DNA of 45,721 nucleotides from assembly GCA_030648055.1 (NCBI GenBank), contig JAUSHI010000009.1, forward strand, positions 1 to 45,721. The letters are read 5' to 3'. The notes under the pieces were generated by a model. The model ran no database searches. It was given only the letters and a program-made list of their open reading frames with translations, and was not told the origin of the DNA. This document shows positions 4,255-41,943 of this stretch, in pieces (the first letter of the stretch is position 1; every line of letters begins with the position of its first letter). This DNA comes from a bacterium (GTDB lineage: Bacteria; Patescibacteriota; Minisyncoccia; Sungbacterales; SURF-37). A program made the position numbers and the translations under genes.

Positions 4255-5052
4255 ATGCGCAATGATTATGTATTTGATCTTGAAACTAAATATTCTTTTG
4301 ACGAGGTTGGCGGAAGAGACCATTTGACGGATTTGGGGGTCTCTTATATAGGGCTTTATTCTTATCGCGAAGATAAATTTTTTGGATTTCGCGAAAATGA
4401 ACTTGATAAATTGAATTCTATTTTTGGCGAAGCTGACCGCGTTATCGGGTTTAATATAAATAATTTTGATTTGCCGGTGCTGGCTCCGCACGTGAGCGTT
4501 GACCTGACTAAAATTCCTGCATTGGATATTTTTGATGATGTGACGAAAGTGCTTGGCCATAGAATCGGCCTGGACGCGCTTTCCAAGGCCACGCTTGGCG
4601 CGGAAAAGCTCGGTCACGGCCTTGATTCTTTAAAGTGGTACAGAGAAGGCGATTGGGAAAGATTGGAGAAATATTGTTTGCAGGATGTCCGGCTTACACG
4701 CGACCTTTATGAATTTGGAAAAGCAAAGGGCTATCTTATGTTTGATTCCAACTATAACGGCAAGCGTGTCTCGGTGCCGGTGAAGTGGAATCACGCGCCT
4801 GAAGCTGAAATTCTTTCGCGCATTAACGAAGCGGTAAAAGAAAAAAAGGCGCTTGAAATTGATTATGTGTCGCGCGAAGACAGCGGCGGAGGGTATCAAA
4901 AGAAAAGAAAAATTGAAGTGCGCCAGATTTTAGGCGATAGCGTTGAGGCTTATTGTCATTTTCGCAAGGATGTCAGGCGCTTTAGGCTCGGCAGAATTCT
5001 TGACGCACGGGTTTTAAACGAGCCGGCGCAACTAATTCAGACGCTTTTTTAA
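4255..5052 (+). CDS. YprB/RNase_H_2-like (DEDD) exonuclease domain fused to a C-terminal WYL domain
   Basis: VFDLET, GFNINNFDLP and YCLQDV; then LEIDYVS...RKIE...VEAYCHFRKDVRRFRLGRI (WYL signature). Confidence 0.82.
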   Translation: MRNDYVFDLETKYSFDEVGGRDHLTDLGVSYIGLYSYREDKFFGFRENELDKLNSIFGEADRVIGFNINNFDLPVLAPHVSVDLTKIPALDIFDDVTKVLGHRIGLDALSKATLGAEKLGHGLDSLKWYREGDWERLEKYCLQDVRLTRDLYEFGKAKGYLMFDSNYNGKRVSVPVKWNHAPEAEILSRINEAVKEKKALEIDYVSREDSGGGYQKKRKIEVRQILGDSVEAYCHFRKDVRRFRLGRILDARVLNEPAQLIQTLF

Positions 5053-5094
5053 GGAGTTTTGTCTCCGACGTTATGTCGGAGCAACAAAACCCTT

Positions 5095-5354
5095 ACCCAA
5101 CACATAACTTTATGTATTACGTATATTTATTGAAAAATAATACAAAGAATGAGATATACATTGGATATACCGATGATTTGGAGAGAAGACTTAAAGAACA
5201 CCAACGGAAACACCCCGAGCTTGTGTATTATGAAGCATACAAAGCAGAAAAGGATGCCAGAACGCGTGAAATAAAATTAAAGCAACACGGTCAAACTAAA
5301 AGAAGATTAAAAGAGAGAATTCAGCGCTGCCTTACGTAAAGTTATGTGCTGGGT
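5095..5354. mobile_element. Family B inverted-repeat element carrying a GIY-YIG ORF
   Basis: ACCCAACACATAACTTTA (5095-5112) and TAAAGTTATGTGCTGGGT (5337-5354) are 17/18 complementary and abut the start and stop codons. Confidence 0.7.
5112..5339 (+). CDS. Small GIY-YIG nuclease
   Basis: MYYVYLL...IYIGYTDDLERRLKEH...YYEAY...ARTREIKLK. Confidence 0.9.
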   Translation: MYYVYLLKNNTKNEIYIGYTDDLERRLKEHQRKHPELVYYEAYKAEKDARTREIKLKQHGQTKRRLKERIQRCLT

Positions 5355-5395
5355 GCTAAAGTTTGTAATTACTCGCTTACGCTCGTAAACAAAAC

Positions 5396-5884
5396 ATGGC
5401 AGAAACAATTTTTCATAGTTGGACCAGTGGCGTTTTAACGCTTTCGGAGATGATTAACGAGATTGGCCAATATATAAAATCTAAGCCGGAGAGGGCTTAT
5501 CAAATTATTGTTGGTTCTGATTCTTCAACAACCAATCCGGTCAGCGTTGTCACCGCGGTTACGGTATGGCGTGTGGGCAACGGCGGAATTCATTTTTGGT
5601 TTGATGCCGAGAAAAAAACCTTTCATACTTTACAGGATCGCATTTATGAGGAAACAATCCGCTCAATAACGCTCGCTCAGGAATTGCGCGACAGAATGCG
5701 GGAAAAACTTGGAGAGGACGCGCTTTGGGATAAAAAAATAACTGTTCATATTGATGTGGGTGAGAACGGGCCGACTAAAGATTTGATTGACCAGGTGGTG
5801 GGTATGGTAAAGGGTTTCGGTTTCCAGGCGGTAATAAAACCGAATTCGTTCGGGGCATCGGTGGTGGCCGACAAACATACTTAG
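5396..5884 (+). CDS. Ribonuclease H-like YkuK (DUF458) family protein
   Basis: IIVGSDS, RIYEE, VHIDVGENGPT and KPNSFGASVVADK. Confidence 0.85.
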   Translation: MAETIFHSWTSGVLTLSEMINEIGQYIKSKPERAYQIIVGSDSSTTNPVSVVTAVTVWRVGNGGIHFWFDAEKKTFHTLQDRIYEETIRSITLAQELRDRMREKLGEDALWDKKITVHIDVGENGPTKDLIDQVVGMVKGFGFQAVIKPNSFGASVVADKHT

Positions 5885-6050: not shown

Positions 6051-6194
6051 TCGCTTTGGATAAAGACCGCGACATCCGCAATGAAAAATTTTCGTTATGC
6101 TTCGCTAGGAGAAGAAACACTAAAAAGGAATTGCTCGCTTGAGGGGGACTTTAAAAAACGGATAGAGGCCGTTTTTGATGATTTTGAGTATTGA

Positions 6195-6313
6195 CCCCGT
6201 TAGAAGTCGCGGACGCTTCTGGAGTTTTTGCAACTCTATAGCGTGGTGTCAATCAAGAAAATGTATAGCTTTTAAGGTAGAAATATTATGGCCGCGTCCT
6301 ACTTCTAACGGGG
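6195..6313. mobile_element. Family A inverted-repeat element inserted at a -35 box
   Basis: TTGA|CCCCGTTAGAAGT...ACTTCTAACGGGG|TTGA; 119 bp. Confidence 0.8.
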
Positions 6314-6370
6314 TTGACAAATACTTATTTTAGGGGTATAATTGCCGTAATAGTAAAAATGCTCTTTAAA
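6314..6370 (+). promoter_or_regulatory. Consensus sigma70 promoter followed by a boxA-like motif
   Basis: TTGACA (6314), 17 bp spacer, TATAAT (6337). TGCTCTTTAAA at 6360-6370. Confidence 0.8.
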
Positions 6371-6497
6371 TAAGTCGGTTTTTGGCGGAATTGGGGTTTC
6401 AATTTGGTTCCCGACCCTCCTCGGCGATCAAATTCCGGTTCTACCGGAGTTGAGGCCCCTATTCTGCCAAAAATCTAAAAATAAGGGGGACACTACG

Positions 6498-6740
6498 ATG
6501 TTTATGCACAACATGCTTCAGAGTGAGGTTGCCGCCTTTGTGGCGACAACATTCCCGAAGTGGGTACTCGGTGCGGCAGAAGGCGAGCAGCCCTACACGG
6601 TTGATCCGCGATGGGGTTCGTCGTTTTACTGCATATGTGACCTTTGCAAAGCACCGGTGCTCAAAGACGTGAACGCGATGCTCGGTCACCGAAATCATCA
6701 TGTCATCACAGGCGACATCGTCCTGGGAAAGGGGAAATGA
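6498..6740 (+). CDS. Small hypothetical protein with a C2H2 zinc-finger-like motif
   Basis: SD-like AAGGGGG upstream; CDLC-x13-HRNHH. Confidence 0.55.
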   Translation: MFMHNMLQSEVAAFVATTFPKWVLGAAEGEQPYTVDPRWGSSFYCICDLCKAPVLKDVNAMLGHRNHHVITGDIVLGKGK

Positions 6741-6741
6741 G

Positions 6742-6942
6742 ATGCTCAAGATTTTCGCTGGCTTCATGATCTGGTTGCTCTTTGCCGGCGTGTCGCGGAC
6801 GCGACGCCCGAGCGGCCGAAGCGAGCGAGCTTCTTCGGCTCGTGGTCCGCATTCGCCACCCCGGCTCGGCGCCCGGCCACGAGCCCGCGGGTCCAGGTCG
6901 TCCCGGCCTCCATGCTTCGCCGACTGGCGGCGAGGATGGTGA
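6742..6942 (+). CDS. Possible small protein (hydrophobic N-terminus, Arg-rich tail)
   Basis: ATG immediately after the previous stop, with AAGGGG upstream; MLKIFAGFMIWLLFAG. The tail looks like an off-frame translation. Confidence 0.3.
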   Translation: MLKIFAGFMIWLLFAGVSRTRRPSGRSERASSARGPHSPPRLGARPRARGSRSSRPPCFADWRRGW

Positions 6943-6992
6943 GGCCCTTCGCCCGCAAACCCTCGGTTTAGGAAGACCGGGAAGGAGATGCC

Positions 6993-7142
6993 ATGGCGGA
7001 GGAAGCGCAGGCCGTAACTTCCAAGAAGGAGATCGAAAAGTTCATCATTTGGCGCCGGCCCATTCGTATGGATGCCGGTCTGGTGGCGATTCCATTCGAT
7101 CTCCGCGATTCCAACCGTGGAGATCACAGCGCTACGAAGTAG
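6993..7142 (+). CDS. 49-aa hypothetical protein (not in the ORF track)
   Basis: Strong SD GAAGGAG; MAEEAQAVTSKKEIEKFIIWRRPIRMDAGLVAIPFDLRDSNRGDHSATK. Confidence 0.5.
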   Translation: MAEEAQAVTSKKEIEKFIIWRRPIRMDAGLVAIPFDLRDSNRGDHSATK

Positions 7143-7300
7143 CCCCCAACTCCCGACTACGCGCAAAACATCGCGCGCCGTCGGGACTCTATCAGATTCT
7201 GTGAGAATGCGCATGTCCAGAAACCATAAAAAAGACATTAGGCGTATTCTTGCGGAATCTGATAGGGTAGTTCGTTTCAAATTAATTTAATAAGGTTCGT

Positions 7301-7377
7301 AGGCCCGTAGCTCAAACGGTTAGAGCACGCGATCTATAATCGCGAGGTTGAGCGTTCAAATCGCCCCGGGCCTACCA
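7301..7377 (+). tRNA. tRNA-Ile(UAU), atypical
   Basis: Acceptor AGGCCCG/CGGGCCT, anticodon arm CGCGA-TCTATAA-TCGCG, T loop TTCAAAT, encoded CCA. Has C33 and one T-stem mismatch. Confidence 0.8.
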
Positions 7378-9804: not shown

Positions 9805-9880
9805 ACCTTCGCACTTAATTTTATTTTTTGTGTCTTCGTAGCTTCCGCCCGAGGCGGCACTACTTTTGGCGGACAGTGGA

Positions 9881-9992
9881 CCCCGCACTAAAAATATGCG
9901 CCCGTAGCTCAACTGGATAGAGCATCGGCCTCCGAAGCTGAAGGTTACAGGTTCGAATCCTGTCGGGCGCGAATGCATATTTTAGTGCGGGG
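9881..9992. mobile_element. Family B inverted-repeat element carrying a tRNA gene
   Basis: CCCCGCACTAAAAATATGC ... GCATATTTTAGTGCGGGG (18 bp complementary, one bulge). Confidence 0.75.
9898..9971 (+). tRNA. tRNA-Arg(CCG)
   Basis: Acceptor GCGCCCG/CGGGCGC, TCGGC-CTCCGAA-GCTGA, ACAGG-TTCGAAT-CCTGT; CCA not encoded. Confidence 0.93.
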
Positions 9993-10061
9993 CAGGTGCC
10001 GCGCGGCCATCCGAGGGCTGTAATGGCAGTTCGAATCTGCCCGAGGACACAATTGTAGAAT

Positions 10062-24166: not shown

Positions 24167-24207
24167 TTTTATAAAACAACCGCTACTGTAGCGGTTGTTT
24201 TATAAAA
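24167..24207 (-). terminator. Terminator palindrome after ssrA
   Basis: TTTTATAAAACAACCGCTAC-T-GTAGCGGTTGTTTTATAAAA. Confidence 0.75.
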
Positions 24208-24699
24208 TGGAGGTGGTCGGAATTGAACCGGCGTCCGGACCATATTTTTCCAAGATGTACTACGAAGATATCTCCATTGGTGTTTCACCGAGCCGGTAAT
24301 AATGGAGCAAAAACCGGTTTGGATAAAGTTCGCTTTTTGTCGTCCCGATCCACGAACGAAAATTGGGACCAAGCTTTATGTATGACACCCGTGATCCTAA
24401 GTCATCATATTGCTTTCGCAATTTGATGACCGGACGATCAATCCCGCAAGCGGGATTGATTTAGTCTGCCTATTAAGCTTCGGCAGGCGGATGGTCTACG
24501 TGGCCGAACCGTTAGGTTCTAGGCTTAGGCGTAAACAGGAGCGAGCTTATCGTTGCCACCACCAAAAGCGGCCGCAAAGACATTACTCACTTTCGTAAAT
24601 AAGTTTGCACTTATTGTTGTGCCGATGATTTACGAGGATACGGCACCTCCTCGCCTCGCATCTTGAATTTTCAATGATTCGTCGAAGCCTTTCACCCCC
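24208..24699 (-). ncRNA. ssrA: tmRNA
   Basis: 5' GGGGGTGAAAGGCTTCGAC; 3' GACGCCGGTTCAATTCCGACCACCTCCA with G3-U70. Tag frame ANLFTKVSNVFAAAFGGGNDKLAPVYA* (24608-24525). Near smpB. Confidence 0.93.
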
Positions 24700-24769: not shown

Positions 24770-24823
24770 TTTAGCCTAAAATGTTCGGGCGATCAATCCC
24801 GCCTTGGCGGGATTGATTTAGCC
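24770..24823. repeat. Family C hairpin repeat
   Basis: TTTAGCCTAAAA..TCGGGCGATCAATCCCGC-CTTG-GCGGGATTGATTTAGCC; homologous to 28616-28672 and 24435-24464. Confidence 0.75.
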
Positions 24824-25075
24824 CTTTCTAAATTTTTTTATCAGATTTTTCTTAAATCTGCCAGCCCATAAACTTTTCAGAAATCTTTCTCGGTTAAAGG
24901 CCGCGCCTTTATTTTCGAAACTTTCTGAATGTATAATTGTAAACGGTCTTCGCGTACTAGTTGAACTAACTTTTCCAGAGTTGTGTTTTTGCAGTCTCTT
25001 TTTCAGGTTAGTAGTACATCCAGTATAGAGCTTGCCGTCTTTCCCGCTTAGCAATATATACACGAAATAGGGCAT
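24818..25075 (-). CDS. Small GIY-YIG nuclease
   Basis: MPYFVYILLSGKDGKLYTGCTTNLKKRLQKHNSG...ST..RRPF...RERFLKS. Confidence 0.9.
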   Translation of the reverse strand: MPYFVYILLSGKDGKLYTGCTTNLKKRLQKHNSGKVSSTSTRRPFTIIHSESFENKGAAFNRERFLKSLWAGRFKKNLIKKFRKG

Positions 25076-25076
25076 A

Positions 25077-25529
25077 TTAACCAATCTGATTTTTTATCGC
25101 GCGTTCTATTTTTCTTGCGTCTTCGCGTTCGCGAATCGCCTGGCGTTTATCGCGCCCTTGTTTGTGTCGCGCTAATGCCAGTTCTATCTTGATTCGCGAT
25201 TTCTTATCATACACCCGAATTGGCACTAAAGTCAAGCCCTTTTCGGCAGTTTTTCCTATCAGTTCTTTTATTTCCGATTTGTGGAGCAGTAATTTTCGCG
25301 AGCGGTCCGGGTCATAATTTGCCGGAGTGTTTTTTGCCTGGTATGGCGGAATTGAGGCGTTTATAAGCCAGGCCTCGCTACCCTTAATTACAACATAAGA
25401 CCCCGCGAGATTGACGCGGCCGTTTTTGATCGCTTTGACTTCAAAACCGAAAAGCTCAATCCCGGCCTCGTATTTTTCAAGGACCTCGTAATCAAAAAGC
25501 GCCCGTTTGTTGACTGAATATATTTTCAT
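25077..25529 (-). CDS. smpB: SsrA-binding protein
   Basis: NKRALFDY..LEKYEAGIELFGFEVKAIK, RSRKLLLHKSEI and DKRQAI. True start is ATG 25529; the extra N-terminus in the track derives from the repeat. Confidence 0.97.
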   Translation of the reverse strand: MKIYSVNKRALFDYEVLEKYEAGIELFGFEVKAIKNGRVNLAGSYVVIKGSEAWLINASIPPYQAKNTPANYDPDRSRKLLLHKSEIKELIGKTAEKGLTLVPIRVYDKKSRIKIELALARHKQGRDKRQAIREREDARKIERAIKNQIG

Positions 25530-25651
25530 CCCGTTAGAGATGGGAAATGCTTTAGGCATTCCCGTTTGTTGTGATATGTGGCTATGGTTTTTGACATGAT
25601 AATGTTGCTGAACGATTGTGCGGGCAAAGTAAAGCCCGGATCTTTAACGGG
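25530..25651. mobile_element. Family A element inserted at the smpB start codon
   Basis: Minus strand: ATGAAT|CCCGTTAAAGAT...ATCTCTAACGGG|ATGAAA; 122 bp. Confidence 0.85.
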
Positions 25652-25744
25652 ATTCATCTCTAATTCAAAGGTAGCACACGCTGGCTGTTTTTTGAAAAAG
25701 AAAAAACGAGGCATTGCCTCGTTTATTTTGTCTGCTGGTTTTTA

Positions 25745-41054: not shown

Positions 41055-41150
41055 CCCCACACCCAGAAGACGCAAGCATTCAGATTGTGGGCAATGGGCG
41101 GGCCAAAAAGTAATTTTAAAAAATGCCCAGCCTTTGGGCTGGGTGTGGGG
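41055..41150. mobile_element. Family B inverted-repeat element without coding cargo
   Basis: CCCCACACCCAG ... CTGGGTGTGGGG, a perfect 12-bp inverted repeat. Confidence 0.65.
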
Positions 41151-41651: not shown

Positions 41652-41767
41652 GGGACGCCACCTTTTTGTAATTTAGTTTAAAGAACAATATATTACGAGC
41701 ATACCATTAAATTATGCCGCGGTCTATTTTTTGTAATTTAAAGCGCGGCTTATTTTGGCGGGACTTG

Positions 41768-41884
41768 CCCCGTTAGAAATAGAACGCGCGCATTCTGAGT
41801 ATCGTCGCGGGAAATAATACGGTGTAATTGCTGCGACAGCATAAATATAAAATAAAAGACCCGTGTTCGCGATTTCTAACGGGG
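41768..41884. mobile_element. Family A element next to a -35 box
   Basis: CTTG|CCCCGTTAGAAAT...ATTTCTAACGGGG|CTTG, then TTGAGA-16-TATAAT; 117 bp. Confidence 0.8.
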
Positions 41885-41943
41885 CTTGAGAAAAACGCAT
41901 TAATGACTATAATATGAAGAGCTTTGTCTATGCGTTCATAACT

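Follow-up and report, generated by a model that had tools for sequence, protein, structure and literature searches.

The segment at 5051-5393 of a 45,721 nt stretch of DNA (contig JAUSHI010000009.1 of assembly GCA_030648055.1, hereafter 'the window') from a member of the Sungbacterales is probably, with a probability of roughly 0.6, the full-length, gene-bearing form of a family of three-hairpin insertion cassettes in CPR/Patescibacteria, spread in a homing-like manner through the nuclease they encode. The gene for this nuclease, which consists of a single GIY-YIG domain, fills the loop of the middle hairpin, and putative cassettes of this kind occur between unrelated genes in many ultra-small groundwater bacteria. 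With a length of roughly 340 bases, the cassette seems to rank among the smallest mobile elements that are complete in themselves. An earlier inspection of the letters alone (the sequence-only reading) had suggested a minimal nuclease cassette at this point, and both of the checks it proposed, for inverted repeats flanking related genes and for patchy presence at a syntenic locus, gave results in its favour. The anatomy and distribution agree with a small mobile cassette, and are a poor match for a stem that is purely regulatory, for a fixed host system and for passive cargo.

The whole spacer between the stop codon of the upstream host gene (5050-5052) and the start of the downstream host gene (5396) folds into three back-to-back hairpins, at 5051-5094, 5095-5354, with the open reading frame (ORF) in its loop, and 5362-5393. 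As DNA, the spacer folds at -42.7 kcal/mol (z -4.05), and the RNA fold, which has these three hairpins too, reaches -79.4 kcal/mol (z -4.26); 0/100 shuffles folded as well in either case. The upstream gene (4255-5052, forward strand) encodes WYL and RNase H-like exonuclease domains (Pfam WYL, 1.2e-07; RNase_H_2, 5.8e-06), is found in 12/12 genomes of the taxonomic family, and has its TAA at the foot of hairpin 1, which contains AAGGAG and an inner 7 bp stem with a 5 nt loop and is predicted in both the DNA and RNA folds. This first hairpin is nearly identical in a relative (L027) whose cassette sits between parA and parB and whose protein is 68-69% identical to that encoded here. The left arm of hairpin 2 (5095-5116) ends on the ATG of the GIY-YIG gene (5112-5339, forward strand, stop codon included; Pfam PF01541), while the right arm (5333-5354) starts in the last codons and covers the TAA. 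Hairpin 3 ends 2 nt ahead of the downstream ATG, and is homologous, with compensatory changes, to the third hairpins of the corresponding element in the closest relative (L010) and of a gene-less element on another contig of the same genome (C9:90490). The downstream gene (5396-5884, forward strand) encodes an RNase H-like protein of family PF04308 (Pfam, 1e-43) and is syntenic in 12/12 family genomes. The inverted repeat (IR) at 5095-5354 is hence the middle hairpin of a three-hairpin cassette and no free-standing stem. An Rfam scan of the window assigned no family to the cassette, a promoter scan of 4800-5600 returned 0 promoter-like sites, and the sequence ahead of the ATG at 5112 contains no Shine-Dalgarno sequence.

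A repeat search delimited the IR as two 22 nt arms, 91% complementary with 2 mismatches and 216 nt apart. This is the same stem that had been described from the letters as 18 bp arms hugging the ATG and TAA of a 75 aa GIY-YIG ORF, including the continuation of pairing through ATGT/ACGT with one G-U pair, which corresponds to the one G-T pair of the 22 nt arms. Watson-Crick pairing fails at two positions, with an A:C at position 6 of the arm and a T:G within the ATG. The left arm contains the ATG (5112-5114) and the right arm the TAA (5337-5339), so that the start and stop codons of the enclosed ORF pair together. The local alignment score of the arms, 17.0, was reached by 0/1000 shuffles of the two flanks (maximum 12.5) and exceeds the 99th percentile (15.5) obtained from 600 cross-locus pairings, a null that is itself inflated because arm families recur between loci; a chance origin is ruled out on both counts. 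The two stem mismatches are found exactly where the arms depart from those of relatives, and this copy may therefore be ageing. A longer ORF of 88 aa, starting from an ATG at 5073, was rejected, as homologs begin at the M-[FY]-Y-V-Y motif of the 5112 start.

The 75 aa protein matches the Pfam GIY-YIG family (PF01541) with an E-value of 8.8e-12 and 45.6 bits, against a cut-off of 22.6, and the Pfam matches to the ORF are exclusively of GIY-YIG type, making up a single domain. Y5, Y16, G18, R26 and E53 show no variation across 72 sequences, and H30 almost none. An AlphaFold2 model (mean pLDDT 93.3) predicts strands at residues 2-9, 15-20 and 35-43 and helices at 23-29 and 46-58, giving the beta-beta-alpha-beta-alpha core of such domains. 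Profile searches with the family matched 1zg2 (E 2e-17) and 1ywl (7e-16), of the UPF0213 group, and Foldseek matched the model to UPF0213, the nuclease domain of Slx1 (TM 0.65-0.68, rmsd about 2-3 A) and I-TevI, with E-values that are weak for so small a domain. Matches in the ESM Atlas were to generic GIY-YIG clusters only, and those to NCBIfam were weak and all below threshold, as with a group I intron endonuclease that scored 24 bits (cut-off 56). Relatives are mostly 83-88 aa in length, and in comparison with most of them the 75 aa form is missing about 9 residues after the conserved histidine; this form is nevertheless a conserved sub-family rather than a private deletion. Where dS allowed an estimate, ratios of dN/dS lay between 0 and 0.16 (the 45 closest of 134 pairs of relatives), indicating purifying selection on the protein family; these pairs cover relatives only, the 75 aa gene itself having no close enough relative.

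A search with a three-sequence alignment collected 80 loci from species-representative genomes, nearly all of them Patescibacteria, to which a metagenome set of 80 loci was added. Within the genome set, 77/80 ORFs have a callable start codon, 5 of those being truncated to less than 70 aa, and 3/80 have none. Loci with a full ORF and enough flanking sequence numbered 68 in the genome set, and 72 metagenome loci were likewise usable. With the threshold for relatives placed above the 99th percentile (15.5) of the 600 cross-locus pairings, an ORF-hugging IR was found in 39/68 genome and 42/72 metagenome loci, such that the GIY-YIG gene is enclosed by an IR in 81/140 usable loci combined, the arrangement for which the sequence-only reading had proposed testing such genes in CPR genomes. 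In 30 of the 39 genome loci and 37 of the 42 metagenome loci (67/81), the arms adjoin both ends of the ORF. The left arm has CCC among its first 8 nt in 32 of the 39 and 26 of the 42, and the fuller motif CCC.RCAC was found in 11 and 30, respectively.

Within the sub-family of the 75 aa form, the arms are almost unchanged among relatives with 62-76% identical proteins; for instance, each arm of a metagenome locus with a 74% identical protein (L102) differs at 1/22 positions. Arm tips are also kept across sub-families whose inner stems differ. Metagenome relatives share a layout in which a variable hairpin 1, a short conserved linker, conserved arms around the gene, a second conserved linker and a variable hairpin 3 follow one another, the last reaching into the ATG of the next gene; in three of them (L120, L122 and L101), pairing lengthens to about 60 nt per side. 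At a minority of loci, complete hairpins stand on both sides of the gene. One such locus (L026) has closed 13 bp hairpins flanking the gene, and the same arm family encloses the gene in L024 and L027.

The contexts of these relatives are diverse. Neither a WYL nor a PF04308 neighbour was found at any fetched locus (0/80 genome and 0/80 metagenome). It had been stated in advance that homologs with stable synteny and without flanking IRs would speak against a mobile cassette; instead, neighbours are shared at 0/160 loci and IRs are present at 81/140. A Pfam family was matched by 16/20 of the flanking ORFs scanned, and neighbour pairs include parA and parB, nusG and L11, an EPSP_synthase-family gene and mreB, an H+-PPase and trigger factor, and a methyltransferase and a dehydrogenase. 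A sub-group of relatives has a co-oriented tRNA gene 6-18 nt downstream of the GIY-YIG gene, and a tRNA lies within 300 nt in 18/77 genome-set loci. In a number of tRNA-linked loci (L050:1340-1800, L058, L061 and L087), the right arm of the IR reaches the first bases of an intact tRNA gene, and upstream of the left arm is a 17 nt copy of the leader and tRNA 5' end, which pairs with the left arm as a local 10 bp hairpin. The resulting 17 nt direct repeat in L050 may be a carried tRNA fragment.

The genome from which the window derives (assembly of 614 kb, 85% complete) is densely populated with similar structures. A count of IRs tipped by CCC/GGG, with arms no shorter than 12 nt and loops between 3 and 450 nt, gave 60, compared with 3-4 in five Markov controls, and these 60 sort into a few arm families. 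One family has 13 gene-less copies in which the left arm ends in an ATG, the right arm begins with a TAG, and the outer linkers are those of gene-bearing cassettes. Sub-groups of these share interiors, and copies therefore also multiply without the gene; the arms of this family enclose a gene in three relatives (L043, L054 and L100). Similarly, 3 gene-less hairpins share the arms of a GIY-YIG gene located on contig C4. The element at C9:90490-90599 is a gene-less sister of the 5095-5354 copy, with similar arms and a similar third hairpin, and C5:149211 is a closed short hairpin of the same arm type. The assembly contains no exact second copy of the 5095-5354 cassette, and matches to its arms within 2 mismatches comprise its own two arms and one unrelated site. 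For the most abundant gene-less families (CCCAGCCCTCTATGC, CCCGTTAGA and CCCCACACC), no gene-bearing copy with those arms was found in the 85%-complete assembly. The genome harbours seven small GIY-YIG genes, paralogs with different arms; 4/7, linked to tRNA or tmRNA genes, have no ORF-hugging IR by the same measure, sit next to those genes and are surrounded by tRNA fragments.

Within the window, gene-less CCC/GGG-tipped hairpins of other arm families are found at 535-681, 6194-6314, 25528-25653, 41055-41150 and 41767-41885. The sequence-only reading had likened the ends of the cassette's IR to those of repeats at 534-683, 9881-9992 and 41055-41150: the likeness holds for the CCC...GGG tips, which all three possess, and stops there, as they belong to other sub-families. 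At 9821-10052, a degenerate outer tRNA-Arg(CCG) is apparently split in its D region by the IR-bounded module at 9881-9992, which has no nuclease gene and contains an intact tRNA-Arg(CCG) at 9897-9972; the 3' remnant (9979-10050) is a second tRNA-Arg according to ARAGORN, though not according to Rfam. A second small GIY-YIG gene in the window (24821-25075, reverse strand, 85 aa) has no ORF-hugging IR, and lies between the end of a smpB-like gene, which we take to be smpB from its translation, and a tmRNA gene (Rfam, 24205-24699, reverse strand).

Other arrangements were observed both on further contigs and in the window. The GIY-YIG gene at C4:23029-23307 contains a 10-codon in-frame insert, itself a hairpin with the arms of the gene's flanking repeat, recalling the in-frame palindromic elements of Rickettsia. 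At C7:48978-49500, a tRNA-Ala(TGC) is broken in the anticodon loop by two abutting IR-bounded modules, one with a GIY-YIG gene and the other with an intact tRNA-Ala; when both modules are taken out, the anticodon loop is exactly restored, and the T-loop of the outer tRNA-Ala holds two more small hairpin inserts. A tRNA-Ile with anticodon TAT, an unusual way of reading AUA, is present at 7301-7377. Over the assembly as a whole, ARAGORN found only 30 tRNA genes and missed the tmRNA, which Rfam detects. Just upstream of the tRNA cluster, 6450-7290 is covered by long overlapping ORFs on both strands with arginine-rich translations; it has no Rfam matches, and looks like non-coding DNA rather than genes.

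With both the ATG and the TAA of the 75 aa ORF inside the stem, it is conceivable that the stem acts mainly in RNA, where pairing of the start codon with the stop region could keep translation of a dangerous nuclease low or provide a processing mark. Conservation of the stem would then reflect regulation of the gene, and not a DNA site for spread. Such hairpins often silence the homing-endonuclease genes of phages, and both the missing Shine-Dalgarno sequence and the persistence of all three hairpins in the RNA fold (-79.4 kcal/mol, z -4.26) are compatible with this. However, gene-less hairpins with the same arms persist and multiply where there is nothing to regulate, in L026 the gene is flanked by short closed hairpins belonging to the same arm family, and it is the arm tips that are kept across sub-families with different inner stems. 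There is also no sense-strand wobble bias: the 24 mismatches in ungapped in-loop stems include 10 of G:T type and 8 of A:C type. Furthermore, the gene is oriented nearly at random with respect to its neighbours, being co-oriented with the upstream gene at 33 loci and opposite at 23, and with the downstream gene at 29 and 30, respectively. A primarily regulatory stem is consequently judged unlikely.

The site itself differs among relatives. The WYL/RNase H-like gene and the PF04308 gene are adjacent in 12/12 genomes of the family, and a GIY-YIG gene stands between them in 2/12, bearing out the patchy presence at a syntenic locus that had been proposed as a check. The second of these (L013) encodes an 87 aa protein, 46% identical in the BLAST match, within its own 21 nt IR of different sequence, the right arm of which encodes the last residues of the protein. 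The closest relative (L010, neighbour protein 75% identical) instead has a 56 nt gene-less IR element at the same point, with alignable flanks, and this element is homologous to one at C7:63694 in the genome studied here. Another spacer holds a different hairpin element of about 105 nt (L016), two hold other repeats (L014 and L019), and 6 of the 12 genomes have plain spacers of 13-51 nt. In a check for target site duplications, the empty spacers of relatives were unalignable to the flanks of the cassette. No empty or alternative allele of the locus was found, at 85% likeness, in Logan contigs from three DNA sequencing runs belonging to a single study, from one of which the window's DNA may derive; one of these contigs spans the whole stretch, and the short pieces represent related cassettes of other organisms. 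An exact 27-mer covering arm and start had 0 matches in metagenome contigs.

Such variation is difficult to reconcile with the proposal that the cassettes are old, fixed components of a domesticated, immobile host system resembling the Ssn/NTS pair, which would police incoming or replicating single-stranded DNA (ssDNA) at hairpins. Domestication has been proposed by the authors of the Ssn study for Neisseria (PMC11893778), the purifying selection on the protein is strong, and genes for DNA uptake, encoding ComEC and DprA, are present in the assembly. Yet the gene occupies the WYL/PF04308 site in just 2/12 genomes, with different arm sequences in each; syntenic relatives number 0/160; decay is evident in the 5 truncated ORFs and the 3 without a start codon among the 80 genome loci; seven paralogs with different arms coexist in 0.6 Mb; and cassettes split tRNA genes and carry a spare tRNA, all of which makes a fixed host function improbable. 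It is very unlikely that the nuclease gene is 'simply cargo', an option left by the sequence-only reading, passively carried by a MITE-like hairpin element that another enzyme moves: most hairpin copies in the genome are gene-less and the assembly is just 85% complete, but the loop is occupied by the same gene family in 81/140 usable loci, in 67 of which the arms adjoin its start and stop; the ATG and stop of the ORF survive in gene-less copies, which points to gene loss rather than capture; and none of four transposase and integrase families (Y1_Tnp, rve, DDE_Tnp_1 and Phage_integrase) was matched by profile searches of that assembly. As a separate observation, Phage_integrase (the Xer-type tyrosine recombinases) has no match in these 614 kb of an 85%-complete assembly and is present in 14/14 control genomes.

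The preferred reading, a cassette propagated by its own nuclease, can be laid out as a sequence of putative steps. Cassettes would land in the junction between two genes, with the arms, through their CCC...GGG tips, forming a conserved sequence-specific site, and the nuclease gene filling the loop of the middle hairpin. By analogy with Ssn, the GIY-YIG protein may recognise hairpins in ssDNA, exposed during replication or on uptake through ComEC and DprA, and nick beside them. Repair of the nick by recombination with a cassette-bearing copy would then copy in the cassette, or the gene alone within an existing hairpin, amounting to homing-like spread. The resident copy should be a poor substrate, its arms being held 216 nt apart by the gene in the loop, and gene-less hairpins of the same families would represent decayed or non-autonomous derivatives. 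GIY-YIG enzymes hydrolyse DNA with no covalent intermediate; they therefore cannot join strands, and we infer that the copying step would have to be supplied by the host. A more ambitious version holds that this is an autonomous mobile element of about 260-340 bp working on a new principle, in which the nuclease gene resides in the loop of its own ssDNA recognition hairpin, closed gene-less hairpins are nicked, repair copies the gene in, and the separated arms protect the resident copy; this is put forward tentatively, as possible rather than probable.

Should these hairpins indeed spread through the action of the nuclease, the cassette would be a very small self-propagating DNA element that relies on a hydrolytic ssDNA nuclease and host repair, with no transposase. 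It would also suggest an evolutionary origin and a biological rationale for the Ssn enzymes, the cassettes being free-living mobile relatives of the Ssn/NTS pair. This would account for the density of hairpin repeats in CPR genomes and for their split tRNA genes with spare copies, as well as for a sizeable share of the non-coding DNA in these streamlined genomes, the one studied here having 60 hairpins and seven nuclease genes in 0.6 Mb. Each combination of arm family and nuclease clade would be a candidate enzyme-site pair for ssDNA tools, such as the Ssn authors propose (PMC11893778).

Comparison with known systems places the cassette closer to some than to others. The families with which the sequence-only reading had compared it, homing endonucleases and Penelope retroelements, turned out not to be the closest, UPF0213/Slx1-like proteins and single-domain nucleases of the Ssn type being nearer. 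Penelope-like retroelements join a reverse transcriptase to GIY-YIG, whereas the ORF here is of 75 aa with host genes on both sides. The free-standing GIY-YIG homing endonucleases of T4-like phages (Seg proteins) are encoded by selfish nuclease genes between host genes. The cassette gene resembles these in lying between host genes, in being patchy at a syntenic site (2/12) and in a decay cycle with truncated copies. Seg and I-TevI enzymes have a separate DNA-binding domain and cut double-stranded DNA, in contrast to the 75 aa protein, which is the catalytic domain alone, with a terminal hairpin.

Like IS elements and MITEs, the family has terminal IRs and copies in unrelated contexts (81/140 loci, diverse neighbours); a transposase of known family was not found among the four families searched in the 85%-complete assembly. 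As those systems are outlined in their published descriptions, REP/REPIN sequences with their RAYT enzymes, IS200/IS605 elements and the cassette all tie dispersed intergenic hairpins to one small repeat-flanked enzyme gene, and are alike in a proposed action on single-stranded hairpins. By contrast, the RAYT and IS200/IS605 enzymes are, by those descriptions, HUH/Y1 transposases that join DNA, and the genome studied here has no Y1_Tnp match; the cassette enzyme is a predicted hydrolytic GIY-YIG nuclease, encoded inside the hairpin. UPF0213 (YhbQ-like) proteins and the nuclease domain of Slx1 are the best sequence and fold matches of the 75 aa protein. Slx1 cuts branched and stem-loop DNA; unlike the 75 aa protein, it has extra domains and a partner, Slx4. 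The UPF0213 proteins have no described tie to repeats, unlike the cassette nuclease.

Full-text searches of the literature yielded no description of GIY-YIG genes in hairpin loops, or of such cassettes in CPR bacteria; a study of Patescibacteria (PMC12455944) lists a GIY-YIG protein among transferred genes. The Ssn/NTS pair is the closest published system (Chenal et al. 2025, PMC11893778). That study drew on RefSeq genomes, and its main text makes no mention of Patescibacteria, CPR or tRNA, nor do 12/14 of its supplementary files mention Patescibacteria, Parcubacteria or Saccharibacteria. Ssn enzymes, according to this study, are single-domain GIY-YIG nucleases whose binding is restricted to hairpin repeats in ssDNA and which cut next to them; the repeats flank their genes, and the authors liken the NTS-ssnA-NTS layout to an insertion sequence (PMC11893778). 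Shared with the cassette nuclease, as far as that description extends, is a single GIY-YIG domain of about 75-95 aa; the description of Ssn enzymes as about 90-100 aa with no other domain was taken to extend to the 75 aa protein and to its relatives, mostly of 83-88 aa. Both systems also have hairpin repeats whose 5' arm is C-rich and whose 3' arm is G-rich, with numerous gene-less copies in the genome, in the published account of Ssn/NTS (PMC11893778). The SRM motif published for Ssn/NTS is not enriched in the genome studied here (1 match, compared with 0-5 in ten Markov controls, and none near the gene at 5112-5339), other hairpin repeats being enriched instead (60 vs 3-4). The two further differ in arrangement: where the Ssn gene is described as lying between complete hairpins, the cassette gene is usually inside one hairpin with an arm on each side, and this hairpin, unlike those of Ssn/NTS as described, is the middle of a three-hairpin unit wedged between genes (PMC11893778).
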